Assembly (NCBI GenBank): GCA_036574205.1
Contig: JAINCQ010000008.1
Location: 1 to 19,455 of the forward strand
DNA from: Elusimicrobiota bacterium
GTDB lineage: Bacteria > Elusimicrobiota > Elusimicrobia > Elusimicrobiales > UBA9959
Direction of reading: 5' to 3'
DNA length: 19,455 nucleotides
Of this stretch, positions 1 through 17,002 are shown piece after piece. Below the pieces are notes generated by a model. The model had not been told where the DNA came from. It searched no databases and saw only the letters and a list, made by a program, of their open reading frames with translations. The translations under genes were made by a program, and so were the position numbers. Position 1 is the stretch's first letter. Each line of letters begins with the position of its first letter.

Positions 1-227
1 TTGAGGATGTATTTTCGATAACTGGAAGGGGAACAGTTGCGACTGGCAGGGTTGAACGAGGGAAGATAAAGGTAGGGGAAGCGGTTGAGATAGTAGGCTT
101 TGGCAAGACCTATCAATCAGTGGCTACAAGACTTGAGATGTTCAGGAAGTTGCTAGATGAGGCTATAGCTGGAGACAAGATAGGCATTTTATTAAGGGAT
201 ATAAGCAAAAATTTTTTTAGGATTTAA
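1..227 (+). pseudogene. tuf: 3' end of a truncated, degenerate elongation factor Tu sequence (domain II only; 5' part lies outside the window)
   Basis: Frame from nt 3 reads [74 protein letters not shown], clearly EF-Tu domain II (EDVFSIxGRGTVxTGRVERG, EMFRK). Similarity ends near nt 205-210 and TAA at 225-227 occurs before the ERGQV motif; no domain III follows. Not in the ORF track. Confidence 0.85.
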
Positions 228-298: not shown

Positions 299-1315
299 AT
301 GATATATTTTGAAGCAAAACAAATTATAAAAAAGTGTTTATTAGCAAAATTACCCTGTTTTATATGGGGTGGACCTGGTATTGGTAAGAGTTCCTGTGTC
401 AGAGAAATTTGTGATGAAGAAAACACAGAGTTATTCGATATACGGCTTAGCCTTTTAGATCCTACTGATTTAAGAGGCTTACCTTTTCCTAATAAAACCA
501 GGGGAATTGTAGAATGGTTGGTTCCCGATTTTTTGCCGCCATCTAATTCAAAACAGAAGATAGTGCTTTTTCTTGATGAATTTAATTGCGCTCCAAAACA
601 GGTTCAGATGGCAAGTCTTCAGTTATTGCTGGATAGAAAATTGGGAAATTATATTTTACCTGAAAATGCTGCTATAATTGCGGCAGGGAATCGTGAAGAG
701 GATATGGCATTTGTAAATATACTCTCTTCTGCTGTTTGTAATAGATTGGTGCATATTCATTTAAATCCTGATATTGATAGTTGGACTAATTGGGCGGTAT
801 CTCATAATATTCTACCGGAGATAGTTGGTTTTTTAAATTTCAGACCTGAATTACTCTTTAAATTAACTGGTGAAAAATCTTTCCCTTCTCCAAGAACATG
901 GGTAATGGCAAGTGAGCTCATTAATAAAACAAAAATAACAGATATTAAAGAAATAAAAACAATTATTTCCTGTTGTGTTGGTGATGGGGTGATGTCTGAA
1001 TTTATTAGTTGGTATAAAAATTATAAAGATATAGATGTAAAATCTATTTTACAAGGCAAGTATCCTGATCTTGAATCTAAAAATGCTTCATATAAATATG
1101 CAATTATAATTGCCTTAGGTTATTATTTGCAAAATCATGGTTTTAAAAATTCTGAAGCTAATATAGCTAACTTTTTAAAATTATTTAATCCTGAGTATAG
1201 AGTTTTGTTTCTTAAAGCTTTAAAAAAAGAAGAATTAGTTCGCCAGTTATGCATGCATAAATCTATGAAGGAGATGGCTTCTCAGATATTAAAAGTTACA
1301 ATTGGGGAGATATGA
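299..1315 (+). CDS. MoxR-like/dynein-related AAA+ ATPase (AAA_5 type)
   Basis: Walker A WGGPGIGKS, DLRGLP insert, Walker B LFLDEFN, sensor AAGN, NRL arginine finger, FPSPRTW motif; SD AGGAGG at 289-294. Confidence 0.9.
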   Translation: MIYFEAKQIIKKCLLAKLPCFIWGGPGIGKSSCVREICDEENTELFDIRLSLLDPTDLRGLPFPNKTRGIVEWLVPDFLPPSNSKQKIVLFLDEFNCAPKQVQMASLQLLLDRKLGNYILPENAAIIAAGNREEDMAFVNILSSAVCNRLVHIHLNPDIDSWTNWAVSHNILPEIVGFLNFRPELLFKLTGEKSFPSPRTWVMASELINKTKITDIKEIKTIISCCVGDGVMSEFISWYKNYKDIDVKSILQGKYPDLESKNASYKYAIIIALGYYLQNHGFKNSEANIANFLKLFNPEYRVLFLKALKKEELVRQLCMHKSMKEMASQILKVTIGEI

Positions 1316-1620
1316 GGAAAAAATTCTATTTTTTTAAGAAAAAGATTGAGAAAATACAGCAGATGGGAGACTATAGTTTTTCTCTGTTAAAGTCAGAGGA
1401 AAATGAAGTACAGATTTTTTTATGTCATGGTGGAATAAAGGAATACACAATAACTTTATACCATGATCCCCAAAAAAAACCTGTATGCACATGTTTTGAT
1501 TATGAAAGGTCAATAAAAAATGGAATTTATTGTAAACATATTATAAAACTTTTGTATCAACTTGGGCGAGAAGGTGAGTTGCTTTCAATTTTATTATCGG
1601 AAGGTGAAAATGCAACCTGA
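1312..1620 (+). CDS. small SWIM zinc-finger protein
   Basis: CTC-x12-CKH (CxC...CxH) preceded by a beta-strand-like YTITL segment; ATGA overlap with the ATPase stop codon. Confidence 0.8.
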   Translation: MRKKFYFFKKKIEKIQQMGDYSFSLLKSEENEVQIFLCHGGIKEYTITLYHDPQKKPVCTCFDYERSIKNGIYCKHIIKLLYQLGREGELLSILLSEGENAT

Positions 1621-2701
1621 AGAAATAATTTCAAATGTAATAATTAGATTGATAACATTGAATCCTTTTTTTGGTGTTCTTTTAAGTAGTTTGGAAAAAA
1701 TTAAAGATGAAACGATAATATATAATGGGAAACCTACATTTGCGACTGATGGTTTTAAAATTTTTTATCATCCTCAAGTTTTAACATTGTTTACTTTATC
1801 AGAACTTGAAGGTATTTTATTACATGAAGTTTTACATGGCATTTTTGAACATTGTTTAAAATCAAGAATAGGTAATAGGAATCCTGATTTATGGAACATT
1901 GCTTGTGATATCGTGGTAAATATAGAGATAAAAGAGATGGGTTATGATCTACCTGCTGCTTCTGCTTTTGATTATAGGTTCAGAGATATGTTGCCTGAAG
2001 AAATTTATGAAATATTAAACAAAAAATCTGCTGTTTTTGTGAAAAGATTTGATATTCATATGCCGCTTTTAGATGAGGATGAAGAAAAACTAACTAATCA
2101 TATCTTAACAGCATATGAAATATCCAAAGATTCAATTGGAGATTTACCGTTAGGACTTATTAGAGCTATAAATAAATTAAAGCCGTCTAAAATTAACTGG
2201 CAAAAAATTCTCCATTATATCGCTGGCGAAGCTCTGGCAAAAGATGAATTAAATTATCACCTGCCAAATAAAAAATATATTCCATATGACATATATTTAC
2301 CTTCTTTGAGGTCTTATACCAAAGGAAGCCTGATAGTTGCAATAGATACCAGTGGTTCAATAACAAATGAGCAATTAATCCAATTCGTATCTGAAATAAA
2401 GAAAATAAGTTATCTGGTAGATAAATTTTTTCTTATTACATGTGATGCTTCGGTTCATGAAATAGTAGAAATAGAACAGTTTGAAAATTTTTTACACAGG
2501 GTTTATTTCAAGGGTGGGGGTGGCACTGATTTTAATCCTGTTTTTAAAATTATAAGAGAGAAGAGATTAAATCCTGATTTATTAATTTATCTTACAGATG
2601 GCGAAGGTGACTACCCAGAATTTAGACCACCTTATCCAGTTTTATGGATTTTAACTAAAAATTATAATGTTCCCTGGGGGAATAAACTTGTGATTAGTTG
2701 A
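1610..2701 (+). CDS. HExxH metallopeptidase-like N-terminal domain + C-terminal vWA domain (DUF2201-like), 363 aa
   Basis: PTFATDG, LLHEVLH, WNIACD in the N-terminal domain; MIDAS IDTSGS, GGGTDF and LTDG in the C-terminal domain. Start revised from the track's 1562 to ATG 1610, which follows GGAAGGTG and overlaps the SWIM gene stop by 11 nt. Confidence 0.9.
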   Translation: MQPEEIISNVIIRLITLNPFFGVLLSSLEKIKDETIIYNGKPTFATDGFKIFYHPQVLTLFTLSELEGILLHEVLHGIFEHCLKSRIGNRNPDLWNIACDIVVNIEIKEMGYDLPAASAFDYRFRDMLPEEIYEILNKKSAVFVKRFDIHMPLLDEDEEKLTNHILTAYEISKDSIGDLPLGLIRAINKLKPSKINWQKILHYIAGEALAKDELNYHLPNKKYIPYDIYLPSLRSYTKGSLIVAIDTSGSITNEQLIQFVSEIKKISYLVDKFFLITCDASVHEIVEIEQFENFLHRVYFKGGGGTDFNPVFKIIREKRLNPDLLIYLTDGEGDYPEFRPPYPVLWILTKNYNVPWGNKLVIS

Positions 2702-2766: not shown

Positions 2767-3350
2767 TGTGAAAAAGTTACGATACATATGCGATATTAGG
2801 GTTTAATAGTTTTGGTATGCAAAATTTCTTTATATTTCGTAGAATAAAAGGCTTAAGGAGAGCATATAATATGCTTAATAGCCTTAAGAACTTAAGCGAA
2901 AGCGAAGTGGCAAAGAAAAGGAAGAAGATAATAAAGTTTTATGAGTAGGAAAAAATATCAGTGGTTTGGTAAAGAAAAGATAAAGGTAATGCTGGATAAA
3001 TAAAGAGCTTACAAAGCGACAATGGAAGTGAGAATTTAGGAGAGTTTGACTTAGAATTAAAACGAGAAGGGATAGAACATAAATTTACATATCCAAGATG
3101 TCCGAGAATAAATAGCTATATAGAAAGGTATAACAGGACAATACAGGAGGAGTTTATAGATAATAACCTGGATATAATGCATGACAAAGAGTTATTGAAC
3201 AAGAAGTTAGCGGAATACCTGTCTGCGTGCAACGCACAGGCAGATTTGATATACTATAATATTGAGAGACCGCATAAATCATTGAATATGAAAGCGCCAT
3301 TAGAGTTAATTTTAAAAGATAAAATGTCGCAAATGTGTGTAACTCATACG
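2767..3350 (+). mobile_element. internally deleted IS481-family insertion sequence remnant
   Basis: Imperfect terminal inverted repeats: left TGTGAAAAAGTTACGATACATATGCGATATT (2767-2797) versus the reverse complement of 3323-3350, CGTATGAGTTACACACATTTGCGACATT. They enclose transposase fragments over only about 580 bp. Confidence 0.75.
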
Positions 3351-3359
3351 AAAACTTGA
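2817..3359 (+). pseudogene. IS481-family (rve integrase core) transposase pseudogene
   Basis: N-terminal piece 2817-2948 (MQNFFIFRRIKGLRRAYNMLNSLKNLSESEVAKKRKKIIKFYE*). C-terminal piece 3000-3359 in the same frame (LQSDNGSE...YPRCPRINSYIERYNRTIQEEF...YYNIERPHKSL). In-frame stops lie between them and the region holding the first catalytic Asp is missing. The track ORF 3177-3359 is only the tail. Confidence 0.88.
3218..3244. repeat. 27-bp GC-rich palindromic micro-insertion, in frame in the transposase remnant
   Basis: CCTGTCTGCGTGCAACGCACAGGCAGA with inner hairpin TGCGT-GCA-ACGCA and outer arms CTGTC/GGCAG. Removing it restores EYLIYYNxxRPH. Confidence 0.75.
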
Positions 3360-3384
3360 TTTATTTTTTTAAATTAGTTAAATT
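3356..3384 (+). promoter_or_regulatory. putative sigma70 promoter of the aminotransferase gene
   Basis: TTGATT (3356-3361), 17 nt, TAAATT (3379-3384); SD AGGAGG just upstream of ATG 3423. Confidence 0.4.
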
Positions 3385-3422
3385 ATTTGTAGAAGAAGAT
3401 GATAATTTTTTAGGAGGAAAAA

Positions 3423-4649
3423 ATGGTGGATATAGTAAAGAATCTTGCAACTGCTCCAAGAAGAACTAAAGCTTCTGTTATAAGAGAATTATTAAAGCTT
3501 ACAAATAAACCTGGAATTATTTCTTTTGCGGGAGGACTTCCGGATCCAGAGGTATTTCCTTATGATTTTGTGGTGGAATCTGTAAAAAGAATAATGTCCG
3601 AAAAAGGGAGGATAGCTCTTCAATATGGACCAACAGAAGGTTTGAATGAGTTGAAAGAAGAATTTATAAAATTTCTTGAAAAAGAGGAAGGAATAAAAGC
3701 AAAACCTGAAAATCTTCTTATAACAACCGCTTCCCAGCAGGCGCTTGATATAGTTGGAAGACTTTTTATAGATGCTTCTGACCCTATTTTAGTTGAATTG
3801 CCAAGTTATATGGGCGGGCTTCAGGTTTTTAAATCTTATGGAGCAGATTTTATTGGCGTTAAGATGACTGAGGATGGAATTATAACTACAGAACTTGAGG
3901 AAAAACTACAGTGGTTAAAAGATCAGGATGAACATTATAAATTTGTTTATTTGGTCCCGGATTTCCAAAATCCAAGCGGTGTTACGCTTTCAGAAAAAAA
4001 GCGAAAAAGGGTAATAGAGTTGTCTGAAAAATACAATGTTATTGTTGTTGAAGACTCACCTTATAGGCAGATAAGATTTGAAGGAAAAGCGCCAAAGATG
4101 ATATATAGAATGGATATTGAGACTAAAAAAACTAATAACATTATATCTTTATTTAGTCTTTCAAAAACTTTTGCTCCGGGCTTGAGAATAGGGATAATAT
4201 TAGCCCATGAACAGATAATAAAAAAGATGGTTATACTAAAACAATCTCTTGATCTTTGCACATCAAGTCTTAATCAGCTTATAGCAGCTGATTTCTTAAA
4301 AACAGGTGAGTTTTATAAGCATGTGGATAAGGTTAAAAAAGTTTACAAAACAAAAAAAGACGCAATGCTTTCTGCGCTTGAAAGGTATATGCCAGAAGGC
4401 GTTACCTGGACTAAACCTGAAGGTGGGCTTTTCCTGTGGGTTAGACTGCCTGAGACAATAAGCGCCGATGATATGTTTGAAGACGCAATAAAAGAAAATG
4501 TTGCATATGTTATAGGTTCCGCTTTCCATGTGGATGGCAGCGGAAAGAACACTATGCGTCTAAATTTTTCGTATGCTACTCTTAATGAGATAGAAGAAGG
4601 GATAAAAAGACTTGCTAAGGCAGTTAAGAATAAAATGTTAAGAAAATAA
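3423..4649 (+). CDS. PLP-dependent aminotransferase class I/II (LysN/2-aminoadipate transaminase-like, no HTH)
   Basis: ISFAGGLP, LQYGPTEG, FQNPSG, VEDSPY, PLP-lysine motif SLSKTFAPGLRIG, PEGGLFLW, RLNFS. Confidence 0.92.
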   Translation: MVDIVKNLATAPRRTKASVIRELLKLTNKPGIISFAGGLPDPEVFPYDFVVESVKRIMSEKGRIALQYGPTEGLNELKEEFIKFLEKEEGIKAKPENLLITTASQQALDIVGRLFIDASDPILVELPSYMGGLQVFKSYGADFIGVKMTEDGIITTELEEKLQWLKDQDEHYKFVYLVPDFQNPSGVTLSEKKRKRVIELSEKYNVIVVEDSPYRQIRFEGKAPKMIYRMDIETKKTNNIISLFSLSKTFAPGLRIGIILAHEQIIKKMVILKQSLDLCTSSLNQLIAADFLKTGEFYKHVDKVKKVYKTKKDAMLSALERYMPEGVTWTKPEGGLFLWVRLPETISADDMFEDAIKENVAYVIGSAFHVDGSGKNTMRLNFSYATLNEIEEGIKRLAKAVKNKMLRK

Positions 4650-5747: not shown

Positions 5748-6320
5748 ATGAAAAATATTTTTTATATTATTCCTTTTTTGTTTTTAATCTCATGTTCTGG
5801 AATTAAAAGAAATTTCTGGCTAAATCAATTTGAGGTTTGTTGTAAGATAGAAAAGACTCTTGAAAGAGATGGGCAAAAGCTTGAATTTAAAGATAATTTT
5901 TTTGAAGATGATTATTTAAAACTTTCTGCTGAGTTTGATATAATGGAGGGAATAAAACTTGATATTACAAATAAATGTGGGGTAAATTCTTATATCTACT
6001 GGGATAAGGCTTATTATATTGATGAAAGAGGAGAAAAATTCAATATTACTATTTCGCAACTGCTATTTAATGAGAAATCAGAGTTAAGTAATATTTCTAT
6101 CTTACCTCCATTTATAGACATAAAGGTCAATTTGATTCCCCAAAATTATGTTTATAAAGAAAAAAATATCTGGCATAATAAAACAATGCTTGATTTCTCT
6201 TTTCATCCGCAAGAGTATCTTTTTAAAAAAACCTCGCTTAATTTTGAATATATTTGTGGTAATATAACTTTAAGATATCTTCTTTCCTTTGGGATAGTTA
6301 ATAAGTATTCTAAAGATTAA
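5748..6320 (+). CDS. hypothetical lipoprotein
   Basis: MKNIFYIIPFLFLISC is a signal peptide II with lipobox LISC. ATG 5748 is preferred over 5730 because it lies 6 nt after TATAAT (5736-5741). Confidence 0.65.
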   Translation: MKNIFYIIPFLFLISCSGIKRNFWLNQFEVCCKIEKTLERDGQKLEFKDNFFEDDYLKLSAEFDIMEGIKLDITNKCGVNSYIYWDKAYYIDERGEKFNITISQLLFNEKSELSNISILPPFIDIKVNLIPQNYVYKEKNIWHNKTMLDFSFHPQEYLFKKTSLNFEYICGNITLRYLLSFGIVNKYSKD

Positions 6321-6372
6321 GTTTTACAATTTTTATATTTTTTTCCTGTTTGTTTATTATTATATATTTGTC

Positions 6373-6430
6373 ATTTAGGTCTAAATATTTTTATTTTTTC
6401 CCCTTTAGACCTATGTTTTTAGACTTTAAA
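6373..6430. promoter_or_regulatory. cluster of three TTTAGAC-type palindromic/inverted motifs, putative operator
   Basis: ATTTAG-GT-CTAAAT palindrome (6373-6386). TAGGTCTAAA (6376-6385) is the exact inverse of TTTAGACCTA (6404-6413). A third copy TTTAGACTTTAAA is at 6418-6430. Confidence 0.45.
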
Positions 6431-6471
6431 TTTTATAAAAAATAATTATGAGAGTGAAATCAGGAAGTAAA

Positions 6472-7566
6472 ATGAAATTTTTAGCCTTTTTGTTTTTTTC
6501 TTTTAATTTATTTGTTTTTGCTCAAAATAGTAGAGATTTAAATTTAGATTTATTTAATTTAGAAATGGAAAATTCGATAGATAATATACCTGTTTCTAAA
6601 AAATATGGGGTTTCATATTCTCTTACAGGAATAATAAAAATAGAGCAAAACGATATTTTGTTATATACAAAAGATGGCAGAATATTTAAACTGGATATAG
6701 ACTTAAAGAAAGCTAAAAAATATGAGAATAAATCTGTTGAGATATATGCAAAAGCGATTGCTTCTGATAATATTTCCTTGTTAAAAGTAAAAGAGATAAA
6801 AGAGTATAATCCAGTAAATGAAATTCAGCTTCCAGATTTCCAGAATAAAAGAAAGCCTGTTACAATAATTTCAAAAAACGGTAGTAAATATTTGTTAAAA
6901 AATGTAAGATGGCATCCTGAAAATTTTGAGGAAAAAAATTATCAGTGGATGGAGGTTATAGTTGATATTTCTAGACTAAAAGAGATTTATTTTGTAAAAA
7001 AACCCTTTACCCCTGAAATAATAGCCGCCCATTCACTTTTGTTATTTAAATTTGAGAAAGGTGGAGTTGTTGATTTAAAGGGTAGAGAAACTGATAGTAT
7101 AGTTTTATCTATTGAGGCTTATCTTAGAGAAGGCAAAACGTATTCTCTTATTGAGGGGATGAAAGATAGATTTAACATAATCTGGCTTTTTGCTACCTGG
7201 AAAGATTATTCTTATAGAACAATCTTATTTGATAAAGATAGCCATAGTCTTATACTCTATCCTGTTAAATTAACTCTTGAACAAAAAAGAGAAGTTCTTG
7301 AATATGCTATAAACCAGGCTGCGGTAAATAGAACTGGAGAGTATTATAACACAATAACCAACAATTGTACAAACAACCTTGTTATACTTATAAACAAGAC
7401 CTTACCAGAAAATAAAAAAATTAAATTATGGGAAATCCCATATCTTGTTTATAATATAAGAGCTACAATGCCAAACCTTGTAACTGATTATTTACAATCT
7501 AAAGAAATACTTGGTCCCGAGGTTTTTAAAATAACTTCACAGAACTATACTCAAGGTTTGCCTTAA
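6472..7566 (+). CDS. secreted DUF4105 / Lnb N-terminal-like (permuted papain-fold) protein
   Basis: Signal peptide MKFLAFLFFSFNLFVFA after AGGAAG (alternative start 6448); AAHSLLLFKF, LSIEA and YYNTITNNCTNNL motifs giving a His...Cys pair. Confidence 0.72.
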   Translation: MKFLAFLFFSFNLFVFAQNSRDLNLDLFNLEMENSIDNIPVSKKYGVSYSLTGIIKIEQNDILLYTKDGRIFKLDIDLKKAKKYENKSVEIYAKAIASDNISLLKVKEIKEYNPVNEIQLPDFQNKRKPVTIISKNGSKYLLKNVRWHPENFEEKNYQWMEVIVDISRLKEIYFVKKPFTPEIIAAHSLLLFKFEKGGVVDLKGRETDSIVLSIEAYLREGKTYSLIEGMKDRFNIIWLFATWKDYSYRTILFDKDSHSLILYPVKLTLEQKREVLEYAINQAAVNRTGEYYNTITNNCTNNLVILINKTLPENKKIKLWEIPYLVYNIRATMPNLVTDYLQSKEILGPEVFKITSQNYTQGLP

Positions 7567-7586
7567 TCTGAATATTTTCTTATAAT
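7558..7586 (+). promoter_or_regulatory. putative sigma70 promoter of the OTCase gene
   Basis: TTGCCT (7558-7563), 17 nt, TATAAT (7581-7586); SD AAGGAGG upstream of ATG 7617. Confidence 0.55.
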
Positions 7587-8648: not shown

Positions 8649-10160
8649 GTGGACTTAAATAAAAACAAGAAAGAAATTATTTTTTTGGTGTTAAATCTAT
8701 TTTTTCTCAATTTGTATTCCCAAAAAGATTTTAGAGATGAGAGTATTTATTTTCTTATAACCGATAGGTTTGTTGATGGAGACAGTAAAAACAATAATAT
8801 TTATGGTGATGAATATGTAAAGGGGAATTTAAGATATTATCAAGGAGGGGATTTTAAAGGACTTATTGAAAACCTTGATTATATAAAAGATATGGGGTTT
8901 ACCGCTATATGGATAACTCCTCCTGTTATGCAACCTCCTGGAATATATGTTAACTCTTCTAAAACCTATGACGCAGCAGGATATCATGGATACTGGGGAT
9001 GGGATTTTTCAAAAATAGACCCTCATCTTGAAACTGATGGCTATACTTACAAAGATTTGATAGGAAAGGCTCATCAGAAAGGAATAAAAATAATTCAGGA
9101 TGTTGTAATAAATCATGCTTATGGAGCGGATGTGGATATAAGTGTAAGATGGTATAAGGATAGAGGAAAGGTTTTTGGGGCTGGAAAAATGTTTAATTAT
9201 TTTAATGATAGTGAAAACTGGTTTACAAAAGATGGACCTGTTTTATATGATCTTCTTGATTTTAATGATAAAAATCCAAAAACAAGAAAGTGGCTTATAG
9301 ATATTTATAAAGAATATCAAAATATGGGGGTTGATGCTTTTAGAATAGATACTGTTATCTGGGTTAGTAGCGATTTTATAAAAGAATTTTTATATGAGAT
9401 TCATAAAAATAAAAAAGACTTTTTTGTCTTTGGTGAGGTGTGGAGTAATAGTGATTTTGATTTAATCTCCTCATATACCCATCTTTGGGATGATAAAGAA
9501 AAAGATATGATGAACGCATCAATGAGTGTTGTTGATATGCCTATGTCAGCTATGGGGGAATGGGGTTTGATGGAGGAAGTTTTTAAAGGTGGAGATTATT
9601 CTAAGGTTATTAAGATACTTAGCAATGATTATAAGTATAGAGATACTACATATCTTGTAACCTATCTTGATAACCATGATAAACCGAGATTTAATAATAG
9701 TAAAAAACCTGCTAAGCTTGAAAATTATATAGATGCGTTAAACTTTTACTTTACAGTTAGAGGAATACCATGTATTTATTATGGAACTGAGATAATGATG
9801 GCAGGTGATGATGATCCAGACAATAGAAAATATTTTGGTGTTGAAGGAATAAAAAAAGCCAAAAAAAGTTTTCTCTATAAATATATTAAAAAACTTAATA
9901 AATTGAGAGCCAAAAGTATTGCTTTAAGAAAAGGCAGGCAGGAAAATATTTATGCCTTAGAAGATGAGTTTGTTTTTAAAAGAGTTTTTGAAAATGAAAC
10001 TGTTTATGTTTTTCTTAATAAAGCAGATAATAAAAGAATAATTAAAATTGATGAGATTGAGGATGGAAAATATAAAGATTTATTTTCAAACAAAAAAATT
10101 AAAATTATCAATAATCATATAGAAATTGAGCCTCATAGTTTAATTGTTTTAAAAAAATAA
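8649..10160 (+). CDS. alpha-amylase family glycoside hydrolase (GH13), probably exported
   Basis: TDRFVDGD, GGDFKG, YHGYW, DVVINH, catalytic FRIDTV / GEVW / LDNHD, GIPCIYYG. GTG start is uncertain; hydrophobic N-terminus. Confidence 0.92.
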   Translation: MDLNKNKKEIIFLVLNLFFLNLYSQKDFRDESIYFLITDRFVDGDSKNNNIYGDEYVKGNLRYYQGGDFKGLIENLDYIKDMGFTAIWITPPVMQPPGIYVNSSKTYDAAGYHGYWGWDFSKIDPHLETDGYTYKDLIGKAHQKGIKIIQDVVINHAYGADVDISVRWYKDRGKVFGAGKMFNYFNDSENWFTKDGPVLYDLLDFNDKNPKTRKWLIDIYKEYQNMGVDAFRIDTVIWVSSDFIKEFLYEIHKNKKDFFVFGEVWSNSDFDLISSYTHLWDDKEKDMMNASMSVVDMPMSAMGEWGLMEEVFKGGDYSKVIKILSNDYKYRDTTYLVTYLDNHDKPRFNNSKKPAKLENYIDALNFYFTVRGIPCIYYGTEIMMAGDDDPDNRKYFGVEGIKKAKKSFLYKYIKKLNKLRAKSIALRKGRQENIYALEDEFVFKRVFENETVYVFLNKADNKRIIKIDEIEDGKYKDLFSNKKIKIINNHIEIEPHSLIVLKK

Positions 10161-10184
10161 TAAAATAAGATTTAGGAGGAGTAA

Positions 10185-12059
10185 ATGAAAGATTTTAATT
10201 GGAAAGTAATGATAGTTGGTTTTGTTCTTTGCGCTTTAGCCGCGGCAGCAACCCCATATGTAACCTTAAAACTCGGGCAAAGCGTTGATCTTACAATAGC
10301 GGGGATGTTTTTAATAGCTTATATGTTTGCCCACAAAATGAGTAGCAAGGATCTTGCAGTTCAACTTAACATAGTTCAGACAATGATAGGTCTTGTCTCC
10401 GGTATTGCTTTTATGGTTGTTATACTTTCAGCTTTTTTTTATATTAAAAACATTTTTGGTAGAGATATAAACTTTGATCTTTCAGTATGGCAGATGTTTT
10501 TATGGCTTGTGGTTTCAGCAAATCTTGGGATATTTATGGGTATACTTCCAAGAAGCGCTATATTAAAAGACAGAACCCTCCCATGGCCTGCCAGTAAAGC
10601 AACTTTAAATGTCGCCCAGACTCTATCAGACCCGGCTGCTGGAGAATTAAACAAATCAAAAAGAAGAGTTTTAATGATGAGCACTGCTGGTTCAGGTTTT
10701 TTAACTTTTTTAAGAGATGGTATGGGGGTTTTGCAACCAGTCGTTGCCAATCCTTCATTAAATGTTGCTCTTGGTTTTGAGTTTGCGGCTTTTGGAATAG
10801 GAATGCTTGTTCCTCTTTCTGTGGGACTTTCAGGGCTTTTAGGAACATGGATAGTTAATTCCTTTGGAGATACTGTGGCAAAATATGCCGCTTTATCTGG
10901 TTTAAGTGGTGAAACTTTTAACAAATGTTTTGAGTTATTAAATAACTATTCATCCTTAGAGGGAGTTGATAAATCAAATGCCATTGAATTTTTAAATACA
11001 AGTTGTTCTAAGGCTGGTGAGTTTATTAATTCTTCTTCTCATTTTAAGTTTGTAGTTCAATGGATGATGTGGCCAGCAACAGCTATGATGATAGCAGCAG
11101 CTTTGACAGGAATATTTATTCCTGTTATAAAACACGCTTTTGGAAAAAGAAAGAAAAAAGATGATGAGCATCTATTTAAATCACTTGCCGATGAACATAT
11201 CCCTATGTCATGGATAGTTAGTGGAGTACTTTTAAGTGTTGTTTTGCTTATATGGATGACAAACAAATGGTTTAACATGCCAACTTTAGAGGTTTTACTT
11301 GCCATAGCTTTACAGCCTATTTTGATAATTGCTGGTTTAAAAGTTTTAGGAATAACAGGTTCGGGTCCAGTTTCGCTTATGGCAAATGCGACTCAATTTT
11401 TGTATGGCTTATTATGGCCTTCTCAATTAAAATCAAACTTAACCGCTGCCTATATAAGTGCAAATCCTCAGGCTACATCTGAAAATGTTGTGCCTTCATT
11501 TTGGGTCGCTCAAAGACTTGGTGGAAGATTTAAGACTCTTATAATAGCCCAGCTTTTAGTTGTTCCTATAGGCGCTTTGCTTACGCCGGTTATGTTTAAT
11601 ATGCTTGAAAAGACTTACGGCATAGGTTTAAATCCAGGACAGCTTGCCGCTCCAACAGGGCTTAAAATAGCGACTCTTGCAATTGTTATGGAAAAAGGTC
11701 TTTCCTATCTTCCTTATGGTGCTTTAAAGGCATCTGTTATAGCTGTATTTATAGGTATATTGTTTGAAATTCTTTTATCATTTAGAAAAAAGGATAAGGA
11801 AGGCAACGAAACTCAAAGGTTCTGGTGGGTTCCAATTCCAGCAGCATTGGGTTTTGCTTTAATTCTTCCTCCGTCCTTAAATATAGGTATTGCAATTGGG
11901 AGTTTTGTTTCATATATGTGGTCTAAAATAGCCTACAAAGAACACTCATCATATCATTTGTATTCTACATCTATTGCATCAGGTCTTATAGCTGGCGAGG
12001 CTATGGTTGGATCTTTGCTTTTACCTGCTTTAACAGCTTTAATAGCATTTTTAAATTAG
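10185..12059 (+). CDS. OPT/YSL-family transporter
   Basis: 624-aa polytopic membrane protein; YVTLKLG, NIVQT, LPWP, LAAP and ASGLIAGEA motifs; SD AGGAGG. Confidence 0.85.
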   Translation: MKDFNWKVMIVGFVLCALAAAATPYVTLKLGQSVDLTIAGMFLIAYMFAHKMSSKDLAVQLNIVQTMIGLVSGIAFMVVILSAFFYIKNIFGRDINFDLSVWQMFLWLVVSANLGIFMGILPRSAILKDRTLPWPASKATLNVAQTLSDPAAGELNKSKRRVLMMSTAGSGFLTFLRDGMGVLQPVVANPSLNVALGFEFAAFGIGMLVPLSVGLSGLLGTWIVNSFGDTVAKYAALSGLSGETFNKCFELLNNYSSLEGVDKSNAIEFLNTSCSKAGEFINSSSHFKFVVQWMMWPATAMMIAAALTGIFIPVIKHAFGKRKKKDDEHLFKSLADEHIPMSWIVSGVLLSVVLLIWMTNKWFNMPTLEVLLAIALQPILIIAGLKVLGITGSGPVSLMANATQFLYGLLWPSQLKSNLTAAYISANPQATSENVVPSFWVAQRLGGRFKTLIIAQLLVVPIGALLTPVMFNMLEKTYGIGLNPGQLAAPTGLKIATLAIVMEKGLSYLPYGALKASVIAVFIGILFEILLSFRKKDKEGNETQRFWWVPIPAALGFALILPPSLNIGIAIGSFVSYMWSKIAYKEHSSYHLYSTSIASGLIAGEAMVGSLLLPALTALIAFLN

Positions 12060-12772
12060 TGTTTGTGAATTAAAGATAAGACTATTGCAAATGTTATCCC
12101 CAGAAAAAGAGCAATTATGGAATGTTTTTCCTCATTTTCTCTTGCTTCGGGGATTAAATGAGAAGATGAAAAATAGATTAAAATTCCTGATGAAAATGCG
12201 CTTAATAAGCTTATTATATGATGCTCAAGATTTGATATAAAAGGATATACTATAAAAGCTCCAAGGGGAGTGGTTAATCCTGCTACCAGAAATGAATATA
12301 TTAATGCCTTCTTGGGTTTTACTCCTCCAGTTTTTAAGAATAGATATACTATTACGCCCTCAGCAAACTCATGAGCTGCAAGTCCAGTTGCTGATAAAAT
12401 TCCAATTACTGTTGAAGTTGAAAAAGTTATTGTATAAATAACACCGTCTACGAATGAATGAAATCCTATTGCAGTTGCTCCAGTAATTCCAAAAGCTATA
12501 TTTTTTTCATTTCTCTGAGATATAAATTTATTTATAATGAGCATAAACAAAAATCCACCAAGCGCCCAGAAACCTGCTTCGTGATTTTCTTCAAAGGAGT
12601 GTGGGAGGGCTATTAAAAGGGGAGTTGATATTAAAATTCCAGCGGCAAAACATAGAAGATAATCTTTAAATTTTTCAACCCAATTTTTTGATTTATGAAT
12701 AGAATAAATCCCTGCTAAATTTATAATTGCCGATAAAATCGCAAATACAGATATCCATCCAAAAGTGCTCAT
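12056..12772 (-). CDS. ZIP-family metal transporter
   Basis: FAAGILI, metal-binding helices HSFVDG and HEFAEG, TPLGA, LIPE; extended -10 TGCTATAAT 9 nt upstream of the ATG. Confidence 0.88.
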   Translation of the reverse strand: MSTFGWISVFAILSAIINLAGIYSIHKSKNWVEKFKDYLLCFAAGILISTPLLIALPHSFEENHEAGFWALGGFLFMLIINKFISQRNEKNIAFGITGATAIGFHSFVDGVIYTITFSTSTVIGILSATGLAAHEFAEGVIVYLFLKTGGVKPKKALIYSFLVAGLTTPLGAFIVYPFISNLEHHIISLLSAFSSGILIYFSSSHLIPEARENEEKHSIIALFLGITFAIVLSLIHKH

Positions 12773-12870
12773 ATATAAAAAATTATAGCATTTTGAATAA
12801 CATAGTATATTTTTAAAAGTTTAAAACAGTTTTTTAAAGTTATGATATTTTCAAAATTAATTGAAATCTT

Positions 12871-13497
12871 TTATATTATCTTTGCTTTTTCTTCAAACTT
12901 GAACCTCATAGCTCTTGGCAGAATTGGTTTTGAGGTATCATGTTTTCCTACAGCTATTATAAGCGGAATTATTTTATGTGATGGTATTGAAAACTCTTTT
13001 TTTATTGCCTCTTCATCTATACCATCCATTGGATGGGAGTCATATCCCAGAATTTTTGCAGCTATCATTAAAGACATTGCAAAAAAGGAAGCATTTTTAA
13101 CGGCAAAAATTTTTCTTCTTATATCATTGTTAGAACTTCCATATAAGTTTGGAGCAAATTTTTTGTAACCTTCAGCTGTTTTTTCATCAAGATACCCGGC
13201 GCTGATCCAATTTTCTAAAACCCTATCTATATTTGTTTCGACCGCATCAATATCTGCTATTATTATAAAGTTTACACTTGCCTGTTTTACCTTGATTTGA
13301 TTCATTGCACATTTCATTAATATTTCTTTTTTTTCTGGTGATTTTACCGCGATTACCTGCCATGGTTGAAGATTCATGGAAGAAGGAGAAAGTGATGCAA
13401 GCTCATATATTTTTTTTATATCCTCATCGCTTATAATAAACTCCGGGTCAAAATTAGCAACGCTTCTTCTTTCTTTTAAAATATCAATACAGTTCAT
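12871..13497 (-). CDS. nitroreductase-family flavoprotein
   Basis: RRSVANFDP, SPSSMNLQPW, LMIAAKILGYDSHPMDG; SD AGGAG; 8 nt downstream of the YHS-b5 gene. Confidence 0.92.
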   Translation of the reverse strand: MNCIDILKERRSVANFDPEFIISDEDIKKIYELASLSPSSMNLQPWQVIAVKSPEKKEILMKCAMNQIKVKQASVNFIIIADIDAVETNIDRVLENWISAGYLDEKTAEGYKKFAPNLYGSSNNDIRRKIFAVKNASFFAMSLMIAAKILGYDSHPMDGIDEEAIKKEFSIPSHKIIPLIIAVGKHDTSKPILPRAMRFKFEEKAKII

Positions 13498-13505
13498 AAC
13501 AACTC

Positions 13506-14123
13506 CTATTTATTTAAATTTCCTATATAAAATTTATCCAGTAGTTTTCGTGCATTTTCTGAGTGTGGCATACCTGAGCCTATTTTTTTATTATCATCAG
13601 TTGTTCTGGTTTTAAAAAGTCTTGTCGCATCTTTTCCACATCCAAGAAGTATGTTTTCATTGTGTTTGTAGGTAAAATCAGAAACATCATAAACTTTTGA
13701 GTCTATAACAAGCCAGCAGTCTCCTTTTTTGTTATGTTTTGCTATCTCTTCTATGTTAAATGATTTAACTTGAGAGTTTTTTGAGTCTTTCTTTTCTTCT
13801 TCGCAGTATACGCACATCTTGCCCTCTGTATGCACATGATTATGTTTACCTACCTTGTTTTTAGCTGGTTTTAAGTATTTTTCTGGCTCTTTTTTAAATT
13901 TTTCAACACATTCAGGACAGCAGAAAAAATAAATTTTTTCTTTATACTTAAAACTTGGAGTCTTATCTGTTATGGTAAACCTCTCTCCCATAACAGGACA
14001 GATAAGCTCATTTCCTATCTCAAGATATTTATTATCCTCTTTGCTTGTTTCATTTTGCGCAAATAAGATACCTAAACCTATAAGCGCAACTATTGTTGCT
14101 ATTATTATTTTTATTTTATTCAT
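13506..14123 (-). CDS. exported YHS (TRASH) metal-binding domain + cytochrome b5-like heme-binding domain fusion
   Basis: N-terminal signal/anchor helix; YHS CPVMGE...YFFCCPECVEKFKKEPEKY; linker HNHVH...CVYC; b5-like EEIAKHNKKGDCWLVIDSKVYDV...H...GKDAT..F...HS..A...L...IG.L. Confidence 0.8.
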   Translation of the reverse strand: MNKIKIIIATIVALIGLGILFAQNETSKEDNKYLEIGNELICPVMGERFTITDKTPSFKYKEKIYFFCCPECVEKFKKEPEKYLKPAKNKVGKHNHVHTEGKMCVYCEEEKKDSKNSQVKSFNIEEIAKHNKKGDCWLVIDSKVYDVSDFTYKHNENILLGCGKDATRLFKTRTTDDNKKIGSGMPHSENARKLLDKFYIGNLNK

Positions 14124-14327
14124 CTTTTACCTCCCTTCCAGTATTTTTAATGATTTGCTTTATCTCCTCAACAGTTATTTTGCTTTCATCAAAGACCACT
14201 TTCATAGTTTTTGTTTTATGAGAAGGTTCAACACTGATGATTCCATCAACATTGTTAAAAGCAATTTTCAAAGCATTTTCGCAACCTTTGCATGAGATAG
14301 AAGGTATTTAAAAATTATTTCTTTCAT
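14116..14327 (-). pseudogene. copZ: CopZ-like HMA copper chaperone with a 1-nt frameshift (real or sequencing error)
   Basis: ATG 14327 overlaps the csoR stop (ATGA). Adding one base in the homopolymer runs at 14307-14314 gives MKEIIFKIPSISCKGCENALKIAFNNVDGIISVEPSHKTKTMKVVFDESKITVEEIKQIIKNTGREVKDE* (70 aa, CxxC), ending at TAA 14118-14116 and overlapping the next start. The span is 212 nt, one short of a codon multiple. Confidence 0.85.
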
Positions 14328-14599
14328 GAGTATTTTTTATATATATCTATTAATTCCCTTATTTTTTCTTTAATTTCCTTTTCATTTTTTGATTGCATTG
14401 CGTTTCTTACGCAGGTATTCAGGTGATTTTCAAGTATTAAAGCATTTATACTTTTAAGCGCACCTATTACAGCTGCAATCTGCTGGAATATATCAATGCA
14501 GTATTCTTTGTTCTCAATCATCCTTTTAATGCCATTTATCTGTCCATATGCTTTTTTAATTCTTGGCGAAATTTTTTTAATAAGCCTGTCATCAACCAT
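14324..14599 (-). CDS. csoR: CsoR-family copper-sensing repressor
   Basis: GQINGIKRMIENKEYCIDIFQQIAAV...LENHLNTCV with the Cys/His/Cys Cu(I) ligand set; divergent from copA. Confidence 0.92.
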   Translation of the reverse strand: MVDDRLIKKISPRIKKAYGQINGIKRMIENKEYCIDIFQQIAAVIGALKSINALILENHLNTCVRNAMQSKNEKEIKEKIRELIDIYKKYS

Positions 14600-14605
14600 A
14601 ATTAG

Positions 14606-14634
14606 ATTATACTATTATAGGGTATACTTGTCAA
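14606..14634 (-). promoter_or_regulatory. consensus sigma70 promoter of the csoR operon
   Basis: Minus strand TTGACA (14634-14629), 17 nt, TATAAT (14611-14606), 6 nt, ATG 14599. Confidence 0.85.
14608..14626. promoter_or_regulatory. CsoR-type operator 1
   Basis: TATAC-TATTATAGG-GTATA; ATAC...GGGTAT pseudo-palindrome resembling characterised CsoR operators; covers the csoR -10 box and spacer. Confidence 0.75.
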
Positions 14635-14656
14635 GTCTTAAAATTTACATTATAAT
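14628..14656 (+). promoter_or_regulatory. sigma70 promoter of the copA transcript
   Basis: TTGTCA (14628-14633), 17 nt, TATAAT (14651-14656); its -35 overlaps the csoR -35 within CTTGTCAAG. Confidence 0.75.
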
Positions 14657-14662
14657 ATTTTT

Positions 14663-14809
14663 ATGAAGATGTTTATATACTATATGGGGGTATGTTTTCT
14701 TTGTCAAACGATTCTCAAGCGGTATGCTGAAAGATTGAAAGATAAAGTGAAACTTGATGAAAAGTATAGAAAAAGTGAAAATATGTGCCAAAGAGGATCA
14801 CTGTTTTGA
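14663..14809 (+). CDS. candidate leaderless 48-aa small ORF with CxxC upstream of copA
   Basis: MKMFIYYMGVCFLCQTILKRYAERLKDKVKLDEKYRKSENMCQRGSLF*. The ATG is 6 nt after TATAAT and the stop overlaps the copA SD (GAGAGG). No recognisable family. Confidence 0.3.
   Translation: MKMFIYYMGVCFLCQTILKRYAERLKDKVKLDEKYRKSENMCQRGSLF
14676..14694. promoter_or_regulatory. CsoR-type operator 2
   Basis: TATAC-TATATGGGG-GTATG with a G-tract; downstream of the copA promoter; overlaps a possible second minus-strand promoter TTGACA (14707-14702), 17 nt, TATAGT (14684-14679). Confidence 0.75.
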
Positions 14810-14821
14810 GAGGTTGTTATT

Positions 14822-17002
14822 ATGATAAATAAGCTATATATTAAAATTTATGGGATGAGCTGTGTTAGTTGTTCAAAAACAATAGAAAATTATTTAAAAG
14901 AAAAGAAAGGTATTTTAGAAATAAATATTAACTTTACAATTCAAAAGGGATATGTTGTGTATGATGATGAGCTGATAAATAGGTTTGAGATAATAAGTTT
15001 GATAAATAGTCTTGGATATGATGCAAAAATTGAGATTGATGAAAATTTTGAAAAAATAAAAATAAAGAGGTTTAAGATAAAACTTTTTCTAACAATACTT
15101 TTTGCTATTTTACTTTTTCCGTTTTCTATGGGACATCATATAGGTATTCATCTGCCGGTTTTTCTTCATCACAACAAGCATTGGCTTGAGTTTATCTTTA
15201 CGACATTAATTGTTACCCTTGGATATAATTTTTTTCAAAGCGGAATTATAAATTCAATAAAGACAAAAACTTTGAATATGGATACCCTTATCTCAGTAGG
15301 GGTAATTTCTTCTTATTCATATAGCCTTTTAATGCTTATTGAGAAGAAATATGATTTATTATTTTTTGAAACAGCTGCTTATATAATAACCTTTGTTTCA
15401 ATTGGAAAGTTTTTAGAGCAAAAGTATAGAAATTCCGCTACCAGTATGCTTGAAAGTATTTTCAGATTAAAACCTCGTAAGGCAACTATTGTAAAAGGTG
15501 AGAAACAGATAATAGTTGATACTGACACAATAAAGGAAGGGGATATTATAGTTGTAAAAGCAGGGGAAAAAATACCGGTGGATGTTGTTGTTGTAGAAGG
15601 AGGGGGTACATGTGATGAGTCTTTTATTACTGGTGAGGCTATAGGGGTTGAAAAAGTAAAAGGTGATGAGGTTAAAGCAGGAGCAATAAATCTAAGTGGT
15701 TATATGAAGATTAGAGCTATATGTAGTGGTACTAATTCTTTTTTAGACAGTATAATAAAAACTCTTGAAAATACACATAGTAAAAAGTTAAAAATTCAAA
15801 ATCTAGCAGATAAAGTATCAGCTTATTTTATTCCATCTGTTATGATTGTGGCTTTTATGTCTTTTGTTTATTGGTATTTAAGTGGGATGGGGTTTAGATT
15901 TTCGTTTGAGATCTTTATAAGTGTATTAATTGTGTCATGCCCATGTGCTTTAGGGCTTTCTGTGCCAGTTGCTATTTCAGTTGCTCTGGCAAGATTTGCC
16001 AGGGAAAGTATTTTAATAAAAAATCCTGGCGTAATTGACTTGATTAATAATGTTGATACAGTTATTTTTGATAAAACCGGTACATTAACAAAATCAAAAC
16101 TCTTTGTTTCAAAGATATACTCCATCATCTCTGAGGAAGAGTTTCTAAGGATAATTGCTTCTATCGAAAAATATTCAAATCATCCTGTGGCAAAAGCAAT
16201 AAGATTAAAGGTGGAAGAGAATAAATCTATTTTATATGAAGCAGTAGAGTTTAAGAATTTTGAAGGTAGAGGGGTTGTGGCTAAGATAGGTAGTAAAAGG
16301 TATTTTGCTGGGAATAAAAGATTTATGATGGAAAATAAAATTAAATTTGATGATAAAGTGATTGTGAAAATAGAAAACTTACAAAATGAGTTTAAGACGA
16401 TAGTTTATCTTGCCGATGAAGAAAAAACTTTAGGATTTGTGGTGGTGGAAGATGAAATAAGAGAAAATGCAAAAGAGGTTATTGAGTATTTTAAAAAGAC
16501 AGGTAAGGATGTAATAATGATAAGTGGGGATAATAAACAGCATTGTAAATTTATAGCTGAAAATCTCGGGATAAATCAATATTATTGTGAGGTTTTACCT
16601 CAAGAAAAAATGAAAAAAATAAATGAGTTAAAGTCCAAAGGAAAAGTAGTTTGTATGATTGGTGATGGGATAAATGATGCTCCTGCATTAAAAGAAAGTG
16701 ACATTGCTATTTCCTTTAAAAGCGCAACTGATATTGCATTTGAAACTGCAGACATTATACTTCTTAACGATAGGATTATTGATATTGTGAAGATATTTGA
16801 GTTTTTAAAGTATCTGAACAGAAAGGTAAAACAGAATTTGTTATGGGCATTTTTATATAATGCTACCTTAATTCCAGTTGCCTGTGGATTGTTTTATAAA
16901 TCAATGGGAATTATAGTAAAACCATATTTTGCATCATTAGCTATGAGTTTAAGTTCTATTACAGTTATATTAAATTCCTTTTCAATCCTCAAGAAAAAAT
17001 GA
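14822..17002 (+). CDS. copA: P1B-type copper-translocating ATPase
   Basis: N-terminal HMA GMSCVSC, TGE, CPCALGL, DKTGT, HP, GDGINDAP, and transmembrane YN and MSLSS motifs typical of P1B-1 Cu+ ATPases. Confidence 0.95.
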   Translation: MINKLYIKIYGMSCVSCSKTIENYLKEKKGILEININFTIQKGYVVYDDELINRFEIISLINSLGYDAKIEIDENFEKIKIKRFKIKLFLTILFAILLFPFSMGHHIGIHLPVFLHHNKHWLEFIFTTLIVTLGYNFFQSGIINSIKTKTLNMDTLISVGVISSYSYSLLMLIEKKYDLLFFETAAYIITFVSIGKFLEQKYRNSATSMLESIFRLKPRKATIVKGEKQIIVDTDTIKEGDIIVVKAGEKIPVDVVVVEGGGTCDESFITGEAIGVEKVKGDEVKAGAINLSGYMKIRAICSGTNSFLDSIIKTLENTHSKKLKIQNLADKVSAYFIPSVMIVAFMSFVYWYLSGMGFRFSFEIFISVLIVSCPCALGLSVPVAISVALARFARESILIKNPGVIDLINNVDTVIFDKTGTLTKSKLFVSKIYSIISEEEFLRIIASIEKYSNHPVAKAIRLKVEENKSILYEAVEFKNFEGRGVVAKIGSKRYFAGNKRFMMENKIKFDDKVIVKIENLQNEFKTIVYLADEEKTLGFVVVEDEIRENAKEVIEYFKKTGKDVIMISGDNKQHCKFIAENLGINQYYCEVLPQEKMKKINELKSKGKVVCMIGDGINDAPALKESDIAISFKSATDIAFETADIILLNDRIIDIVKIFEFLKYLNRKVKQNLLWAFLYNATLIPVACGLFYKSMGIIVKPYFASLAMSLSSITVILNSFSILKKK

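Follow-up and report, generated by a model that had tools for sequence, protein, structure and literature searches.

Couples of an AAA_5/MoxR-type ATPase and a von Willebrand factor A (vWA) domain, such as RavA-ViaA, NorQ-NorD, CbbQ-CbbO and midasin, are well established, and they are the basis of analogy for the locus considered here, which was found in an Elusimicrobiota bacterium (assembly GCA_036574205.1). The stretch of DNA analysed, hereafter the window, is the entire 19,455-base contig C41 (JAINCQ010000008.1) of a genome of 1.85 Mb that is assembled in 43 contigs, is 95% complete and has about 30% G+C. Three co-oriented and overlapping genes lie on its + strand at positions 299-1315, 1312-1620 and 1610-2701 and encode, in this order, an AAA+ ATPase, a stand-alone SWIM zinc-finger protein and a metallopeptidase-vWA protein. 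In our opinion, this module is, on balance, probably a horizontally acquired and translationally coupled operon of phage-type origin, which would specify an ATP-driven remodelling or proteolytic unit with a clade-specific SWIM adaptor.

The classical couples, namely NorQ-NorD, CbbQ-CbbO, RavA-ViaA, BchI-BchD and midasin, share with the module a midasin-like ATPase and the vWA fold. They differ from it in that their vWA protein has no HExxH motif, a SWIM partner is lacking and the genes stand beside client enzymes. The same logic of an ATPase, a vWA protein (with a possible peptidase) and a variable third component, together with a sporadic distribution, was described in the main text of Kaur et al. 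(2020) for MoxR-vWA ternary conflict systems (PMC7159879). The third component of those systems is a VMAP, iSTAND, FtsH or beta-propeller protein, whereas a 102-residue SWIM protein takes this place in the window, and the word SWIM does not occur in the main text of that paper (PMC7159879). With a SWIM protein as the third gene product and only 16.5 bits to the bpMoxR profile against a cut-off of 27, the module falls outside the systems defined there.

In the record of Escherichia coli K-12, the genes yehL (MoxR-family ATPase), yehM, yehP (vWA) and yehQ (SWIM) stand in a row and offer the same domain repertoire. A preliminary description of the locus, made from its sequence alone, had pointed to them as a different MoxR/vWA set accompanied by SWIM; the likeness in domains stands, but specific homology does not, because BLASTP aligned the ATPases in the AAA core at E 0.014, gave no alignment for the vWA proteins and matched the SWIM proteins at the level of the motif (E 1.4), and orthology was not found. 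YehQ is also 614 residues long against about 100 in the window, and yehM is an extra gene of the E. coli cluster. The nearest counterpart of the two outer genes is a phage pair (PHROG 1297 with PHROG 1314; gp029/gp031 of Vibrio phage SBP1, 34/30 of Thermus phage phiFa and gp576 of Bacillus phage G), which has the same order, the same strand and the same HExxH and metal ion-dependent adhesion site (MIDAS) residues. It differs from the module in that the phage records hold no detectable SWIM relative, while the window has no phage context.

The three genes and their products

The stop of the ATPase gene and the start of the SWIM gene share the letters ATGA at 1312-1315, which are preceded by GGGGAG. 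The start of the peptidase gene, ATG 1610, is preceded by GGAAGGTGA and overlaps by 11 nt the end of the SWIM gene, whose stop is at 1618-1620; AGGAGG stands ahead of ATG 299. Because starts and stops overlap and Shine-Dalgarno sequences are present, the genes are predicted to be translated together, as a translationally coupled operon. All three frames are intact, every catalytic and metal-binding residue is kept, and the G+C content of the module (28-31%) is the same as that of the host. The preliminary description had proposed a coupled three-gene module, and both the junctions that it gave and the intact Walker A/B, CxC-x12-CxH, HEVLH and DTSGS motifs were found as claimed when the DNA and its translations were read again. 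Its domain calls (AAA+, SWIM and HExxH peptidase-vWA) are likewise upheld by Pfam and PHROG, and of the profiles that it named for checking, SWIM, DUF2201_N and DUF2201 matched, while AAA_5 stayed just under its cut-off.

The ATPase (299-1315, + strand, 338 residues) is MoxR/AAA_5-like and midasin-like, with the Walker A motif GGPGIGKS and the Walker B motif LFLDEF read in the translation. It matches PHROG 1297 over its full length (E 9.7e-90, 302 bits, residues 4-332 on positions 12-351 of the 356 of the profile). Its Pfam scores are 29.4 bits for AAA (cut-off 21.2), 21.0 bits for AAA_5 (PF07728; cut-off 22) and 16.5 bits for bpMoxR. The AAA modules of midasin match it at E 2.1e-8, and there is a weak match (E 8.7e-9) of residues 7-153 only to PHROG 249, which is labelled 'porphyrin biosynthesis' and is the phage CobS-type family.

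The metallopeptidase-vWA protein (1610-2701, + strand, 363 residues) starts with ATG 1610, as does the public protein P0002; in a mechanical list of open reading frames (ORFs) it began with TTG 1562 and had 379 residues. DUF2201_N (PF13203, 84.5 bits) and DUF2201 (PF09967, 90.7 bits) were found in it by Pfam, and PHROG 1314 matches it nearly end to end (E 7.4e-77). The motifs HEVLH(x4)H and DTSGS were read in the translation, and residues H72, E73, H76, H81, T247, S248, G249, S250, T306 and D330 are invariant across 44 relatives. In the structural model, with a predicted local distance difference test (pLDDT) of 88, residues from about 236 to 363 take the vWA fold (Z 12.0 and a root-mean-square deviation of 2.5 over 125 residues against the CD11b I-domain, with residues 238-363 aligned), and the vWA domains of NorD (Z 10.7), MDN1 and BchD (Z 10.0) also match with Z of 10-10.7. 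Foldseek ranked CLCA1, which likewise combines a metalloprotease with a vWA domain, first among the matches of the model, through its vWA domain. The N-terminal domain weakly resembles M48 and minigluzincin sequences (E 0.0024-0.05). In the protein collection searched, 2,085 relatives of the peptidase were found at E<=0.001; the best of them, P0003 (58% identical and located on a 29.4-kb contig), is followed by sequences of about 45% identity.

SWIM domains are generally regarded as DNA- or protein-binding modules. The SWIM protein of the window (1312-1620, + strand, 102 residues) matches PF04434 with 27.3 bits (cut-off 19.6), and its signature is C59-x-C61-x12-C74-x-H76, the four residues being invariant in an alignment of five rows. 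It is built of an N-terminal helix, three strands, the CxC-x12-CxH motif and C-terminal helices. Its AlphaFold model (pLDDT 82, predicted template modelling score 0.73) gave no match in the PDB with Foldseek at E<=0.001, and VIA-align returned a top Z of 4.5 with tied rows, the weak matches including ZSWIM8 (Z 3.5) and Shu2 (Z 3.4). Look-alikes in the ESM Atlas are bacterial SWIM clusters of about 100 residues and 52-70 members, with a TM-score of 0.72 to one of them, and the fold is also like the SWIM region of FAR1/MULE proteins. Thus, stand-alone bacterial SWIM proteins of about 100 residues are an already existing kind. By sequence, the protein is nearly an orphan: a word search of 5.8 billion clustered proteins retrieved it alone, and HMMER over 1.84 billion representatives found one relative of 100 residues (P0124, 34% identity, E 9e-5) in addition to two giant repeat proteins whose similarity to it is confined to a short stretch. 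P0124 is a Pfam SWIM protein (32.7 bits), and P0124 and P0125 lie on contigs of 858 and 5,099 bases. No SWIM relative was found in phage records by tblastn at E<=1, nor in IMG/VR by scans with P0124 and with the alignment A2.

SWIM linkage and the variable third gene

The surroundings of peptidase relatives were compared in 240 loci, 80 each from genome, metagenome and viral collections and each set being the best 80 of some 550-575 confirmed relatives, with ORFs called by a simple first-start script. Relatives in genome contigs came from an alignment-based scan, a single-protein scan having found none. Seven later loci from genomes of the same phylum, one of which duplicates L016, brought the total to 246. 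In 168 of the 240 loci (simple ORF caller with phmmer), the peptidase gene is preceded by an ATPase gene of the same orientation, and the gap between the two is up to 100 bases in 69 loci, 101-600 in 20, 601-1400 in 65 and larger in 14. Among the other 72 loci, 40 have less than 1.2 kb of upstream sequence and two have the ATPase gene downstream.

A SWIM gene between the ATPase and peptidase genes was met in none of the 246 related loci, and none of 148 intervening ORFs (158 were listed and 10 near-duplicates dropped) matches Pfam SWIM at E<=0.001. The preliminary description had named just this absence as evidence against its idea of a functional trio, and taken literally the absence is a fact. 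At the same time, small SWIM proteins of the same build flank the pair in four loci, always 5' of the ATPase gene, and a motif-only candidate stands 5' of the peptidase gene in a fifth, which agrees with the proposal that SWIM is a true partner. Thus, in L017 an ORF of 103 residues (PF04434, 30.4 bits) ends about 30 bases before the ATPase start. L273 holds a SWIM-like ORF (18.8 bits, below the cut-off), a SWIM ORF (31.3 bits), the ATPase and the peptidase; the order in L275 is likewise a SWIM-like ORF, a SWIM ORF (23.1 bits), the ATPase and the peptidase, with more SWIM-like ORFs elsewhere on the contig; and in L281 a SWIM ORF (19.8 bits, just over the cut-off) precedes the ATPase and the peptidase. 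In L096, an ORF of 83 residues that is recognised by its motif only (CxC-x9-CxH) stands directly 5' of the peptidase gene, with the ATPase gene downstream.

The operons of L273, L275, L281 and L017 are composed of the same three families as the module, and their SWIM proteins are built alike. An alignment of the small SWIM proteins extends from end to end, with an N-terminal helix, a strand region 'GG..Y.V.lf.D', the motif CTCxD...CKH[IV]I and a C-terminal helix. The difference lies in the arrangement, since in these four loci SWIM is 5' of the ATPase gene, with a tandem second SWIM-like ORF in L273 and L275, whereas a single SWIM gene stands in the middle in the window. Moreover, the same-class genomes with SWIM operons look G+C-rich by protein composition, in contrast to about 30% G+C in the window. 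The closest ATPase relatives seen sit in the same-class SWIM loci L273, L275 and L281 (E 2e-92, 9e-84 and 4e-85). Five other genomes of the class have a full-length match; SWIM is present in three, L282 is cut inside the ATPase gene, and in G300 the middle gene encodes 283 residues. The three genomes with SWIM are all those in which upstream DNA is visible and the match is at E 1e-111 or better, G300 being more distant. As a side observation, the same two genes, for a lipoprotein-like protein of about 225 residues and a PEGA-domain protein of about 720 residues, precede the operon in L275 (1276-4143) and L281 (2024-4874), whose genomes belong to different families, and the cassette may be larger there.

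In a quick peptidase tree of 56 rows, the SWIM-linked rows were the window, L017, L096, L273 and L275 (L281, found later, was left out). All five fall in one half of 22 rows, with a support of 92 in the Shimodaira-Hasegawa-like approximate likelihood ratio test (SH-aLRT), and four of them in a subclade of 16 rows (SH-aLRT 86); the window is sister to P0003 (SH-aLRT 99). This clustering is suggestive but not strong. The gene orders seen are SWIM-ATPase-peptidase and SWIM-peptidase-ATPase, with ATPase-SWIM-peptidase in the window alone. A linkage that repeats in changed orders usually marks genes that work together, and here it argues that SWIM is a real, clade-specific partner of the pair and not a chance insert.

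The middle position is taken by other genes elsewhere. An Nmad5-like family of 212-260 residues was found there in 28 loci (L098, L102, L189 and others), and a family of 273-355 residues with weak DUF3150 matches in 24 loci (L043, L055, L058, L108 and others); kinship between the two was not detectable by hhalign (probability 0.1%). Other intervening genes are small phage ORFs of the DUF1737 type (13 loci) and one-off genes for RtcB, an RNA ligase, a PD-(D/E)XK nuclease, hemerythrin and a CZB protein. The family as a whole thus tends to carry a third gene that varies, which suggests that the product of this gene is an interchangeable third subunit.

A number of points weigh against the partnership and, more broadly, against the function that we favour. 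The sampling of the best 80 relatives in each set and the first-start ORFs have already been mentioned. The great majority of loci are without SWIM, and a local SWIM hidden Markov model, run over the 16,376 ORFs of the 240 loci, gave matches in L017 and L096 alone, which had both been part of its seed. The ORF of L096 has no Pfam SWIM match at 1e-3, and the second upstream ORFs of L273 and L275 are under the cut-off or unmatched. On the tree, the SWIM label needs four changes, and 57 of 500 shuffles gave a number as low; the rows that are proteins only carry no gene context. The gene order of the window is unique, so its middle position could be a secondary rearrangement. For the ATPase, the AAA_5 and bpMoxR scores are under the Pfam cut-offs, and 'MoxR' is to be understood as a likeness of this protein only. 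Finally, no functional study of any member of the family was found in the literature on DUF2201 or related terms, and among the papers listed on MoxR-like ATPases and phages, judged from titles and abstracts, none deals with this pair.

The outer pair in phages, distribution among relatives and the flanking DNA

The peptidase found 563 phage records with tblastn, of which 435 cover at least 80% of the query, at about 31-33% identity; the hosts include Pseudomonas, Escherichia, Vibrio, Klebsiella and many more. In the N4-like Vibrio phage SBP1, the ATPase, HNH and peptidase genes are followed by those for a helicase and DNA polymerase, and Thermus phage phiFa has an RNase H gene inserted between the pair, in a replication setting of the helicase/DNA polymerase type. 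In the gene table of Delftia phage RG-2014, gene 33 (AAA) and gene 36 (vWA+DUF2201_N) are three genes apart, a dUTPase gene (37) follows, and the genes for thymidylate synthase, helicase and DNA polymerase are among genes 45-51 (PMC5735904). Hence the outer two genes, to judge from these comparisons, are a common, uncharacterised pair of phages and mobile elements. The statement of the preliminary description that an AAA + DUF2201-type pair occurs in bacteria and phages is borne out, and for the same reason the novelty is narrower than it had claimed: new are the SWIM partner of one sub-clade and the unique middle position in the window, while the abundant outer pair is already known.

PHROG 1314 and many phage records (e.g. 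NC_055784.1 and NC_023719.1) bear the label 'HNH endonuclease'. Pfam detects no HNH domain in the protein, and a separate HNH gene adjoins the peptidase gene in SBP1, so that this label looks as if it had been carried over from a neighbouring gene; the arrangement in SBP1, where a true HNH gene lies beside the peptidase gene, may explain how the label spread. The closest viral contig, L176, has a length of 105 kb and a peptidase with 42% identity; two genes stand here between the members of the pair. The insert includes a multi-zinc-ribbon protein with an endonuclease-like tail, and there is a paralogue just downstream (2978-4003 and 6242-7402); it looks like a homing-endonuclease-type insert, for which Pfam gave no clear family.

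Among close relatives, the full-length module is present in one of 61 genomes, which is the window's own, and is absent from the other 60. It is full-length in 6 of 401 genomes sampled across the phylum, where any match at E<=1e-10 was obtained in 12; within the class, 6 of 393 genomes have it (E<=1e-40). Because the module is sporadic among kin and is flanked by an insertion sequence (IS) remnant and a truncated tuf copy, its horizontal acquisition, put forward in the preliminary description, is supported by the genome comparison. The opposite case, in which the module would be a vertically inherited core of relatives, finds no support in the genomes searched.

The truncated tuf copy (3-227, + strand) comprises EF-Tu domain 2 only (PF03144, 60.2 bits) and a premature stop; the start of the contig falls within this piece, and no domain 3 follows. 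EF-Tu domain-3 tails were found at the ends of contigs C15 and C18 of the same genome, where no whole tuf is assembled anywhere. The piece in the window is the sole EF-Tu-type domain 2 found in the genome; two further domain-2 matches were rejected as tuf, their frames of 609 and 794 residues being too long for EF-Tu. A second assembly of one DNA run, a hot-springs metagenome that may be the window's own source, contains a 638-base contig of depth 39.5 over window positions 1-172 and a 2,703-base contig of depth 15.8 that spans 143-2845 and hence the junction of tuf and the module; the two assemblies are of the same data and do not support each other independently. Positions 1-172 are covered about 2.5 times as deeply as the module. 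This uneven depth, together with the domain-3 tails at the ends of C15 and C18, leads to the conclusion that tuf occurs as a multi-copy repeat at which the assembly broke and that the piece in the window is a truncated third (extra) copy at the break. Both flanks named in the preliminary description therefore exist, with the 'broken tuf' read as this truncated copy. A part of EF-Tu domain II in the complex, which the preliminary description had suggested modelling, is not supported: nothing found joins the fragment functionally to the module.

The IS remnant (2772-3359, + strand) combines the first part of a transposase (2772-2948) with the last part of a DDE integrase core (3000-3359) in different frames, as read in stop-to-stop frames; its rve_3 match of 22 bits is under the cut-off of 26.5. 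Pieces that are 80-100% identical to it turn up at the ends, or close to the ends, of at least eight other contigs (C42, C1, C10, C7, C6, C3, C5 and C33), and the start of a Mutator-family transposase (19153-19455) occupies the right end of the window, so the contig breaks of this genome appear to be set by IS copies. The remaining genes of the window are housekeeping and metal-homeostasis genes, and no phage genes are visible besides the module. The metal-homeostasis cluster (12059-17002), with a ZIP transporter, a YHS/cytochrome b5 protein, a CsoR-type repressor and a heavy-metal P-type ATPase, has no visible relation to the module. Contig C8 (53823-53855) contains a second, 91% identical version of 32 bases (247-278) from the intergenic DNA 5' of the ATPase gene. 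In the same DNA run, a low-depth contig (bins of 15.8 rising to 18.4) agrees with the window as far as 1337 and a second one does so from 2698 onwards, each with 255 loose letters; both partial matches may belong to one minor-strain contig that has about 255 other bases in place of the SWIM and peptidase genes (1338-2697). That DNA run is the only run listed as containing this stretch, RNA runs being absent from the list.

Proposed function and competing explanations

A mechanism can be proposed by analogy with the classical couples and from the structural matches to the vWA domains of NorD, MDN1 and BchD. The AAA+ ATPase would form a ring, dock on the vWA/MIDAS face of the second protein and spend ATP on remodelling a client, which the N-terminal HExxH domain would cut; alternatively, this domain would cut its own protein, the ATPase gating the self-cleavage. 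The small SWIM protein would be a third subunit that delivers a target, protein or nucleic acid, to the machine. The physical complex, proteolysis, the adaptor role and the biological purpose are all what we infer from this analogy. A complex prediction for the ATPase, the peptidase and SWIM, with SWIM as the partner, scored 0.65 against 0.52 for a control in which the peptidase was replaced, and it weighs neither way on binding. The third gene is the best candidate for a specificity subunit, because it varies by clade (SWIM, Nmad5-like, DUF3150-like or none). The setting of phage replication and nucleotide metabolism and the link to Nmad5 are a hint at a nucleic-acid-related target. Nmad5 was called a DNA-modification enzyme with a predicted role in the synthesis of modified bases (PMC11846954), and the available part of that paper, which deals with Tmn immunity, does not mention an ATPase or vWA partner (PMC11846954). 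As the purpose, we consider a task in genetic conflict or in maintenance of the element, taken over from phages, to be the most likely, and a housekeeping role in the host to be unlikely.

A role in anti-phage or anti-plasmid defence, in which SWIM would sense the DNA or a protein of the invader, the ATPase would set a threshold and the metallopeptidase would cleave a target of the host or the invader, is a possibility that we regard as rather doubtful. It would fit the sporadic, transfer-like spread among kin, the IS remnant on the flank and the description of MoxR-vWA couples with a variable third component as conflict systems in the main text of Kaur et al. (PMC7159879). Several neighbourhoods also point in this direction: L281 has a SoFic-like gene (919-1938, E 1.3e-49) and an MkoA-like helicase gene (E 4.9e-54) within a few kb, a defence-type reverse transcriptase (5846-7577; RT_XIII, E 1.6e-73) is encoded two genes 3' of the pair in L276, IetA-like AAA proteins (E 1e-15 to 2e-19) are present in L273 (8793-11441) and L282 (2265-3578), and the SWIM ORFs of L273 and L017 weakly match the candidate family PDC-S62 (E 2e-5 and 3e-4). 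The helicase of L281 occurs together with an RNase_H_2 protein (9163-12611). Yet these are a handful of neighbourhoods without enrichment statistics, the IetA-like matches barely extend past the generic AAA core, the pair is far commoner in lytic phages, amid replication genes, and the module's own neighbours in the window are housekeeping and metal-homeostasis genes. PADLOC-DB 2.0 has no significant match to the three proteins of the window (the best is IetA, E 0.0058, on the ATPase, with no families for SWIM and the peptidase) and likewise nothing for the pair in L273, L275 and L281; NCBIfam has no match to the proteins of the window either, its IteA model giving 12 bits against a cut-off of 510. 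The anti-phage example offered in the preliminary description is thus unproven.

It is less probable still that the module is a decaying leftover of an integrated phage or element that has no role for the cell, with SWIM as an unrelated insert in a hot spot between genes. Unrelated genes do occupy the gap elsewhere (HNH, the homing-endonuclease-like pair of L176, RtcB, RNA ligase, PD-(D/E)XK nuclease, hemerythrin and DUF1737), further phage genes are missing from the window, and the SWIM protein has almost no sequence relatives. But decay is at odds with three intact frames that keep all catalytic and metal-binding residues, with overlapping starts and stops and Shine-Dalgarno sequences, which argue for co-translation, and with a G+C content of 28-31% that matches the host. 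Nor would a random insert be expected to recur, as SWIM genes of the same build do in differing orders, next to the pair's closest relatives in four to five further loci. Quite improbable is a chaperone for metal-cofactor insertion or maturation of a host enzyme, like CobS-CobT, NorQ-NorD and CoxD-CoxE, for which one may cite the combination of AAA+ with vWA/MIDAS that is a hallmark of such chaperones, the matches to the NorD and BchD vWA domains, the weak match of the ATPase to the CobS-type PHROG 249, and the genes for ZIP, a CsoR-type repressor, a P-type ATPase and a hybrid-cluster protein at 9-16 kb in the window. A client enzyme is not adjacent, however, the conserved HExxH domain and the phage distribution are foreign to the known maturation couples, and the absence of the module from all 60 close relatives, which share the housekeeping genes, speaks against a core maturation role.

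Returning to the phage-type remodelling or proteolytic unit with a SWIM adaptor, the ATPase/DUF2201 pair is found in hundreds of sequenced phages, including N4-like and jumbo phages, and in scattered bacterial genomes, without an assigned function. The locus provides an experimental handle on this pair, as one sub-clade repeatedly recruits a small SWIM protein, while other clades have Nmad5-like or DUF3150-like proteins at the same place. If the third subunit is, as seems likely, a specificity factor, swapping or mutating it should change the target. As a tentative and, in our opinion, rather unlikely extension, the trio may be an undescribed ternary conflict system, one branch of a family of phages and hosts with interchangeable third subunits, in which ATP-gated proteolysis would be set off once the zinc finger senses a nucleic-acid or protein cue, serving defence in cells and counter-defence or takeover in phages. 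If a role in defence or counter-defence is true, the idea of a MoxR-vWA 'ternary system' would extend to a much larger, phage-centred family.

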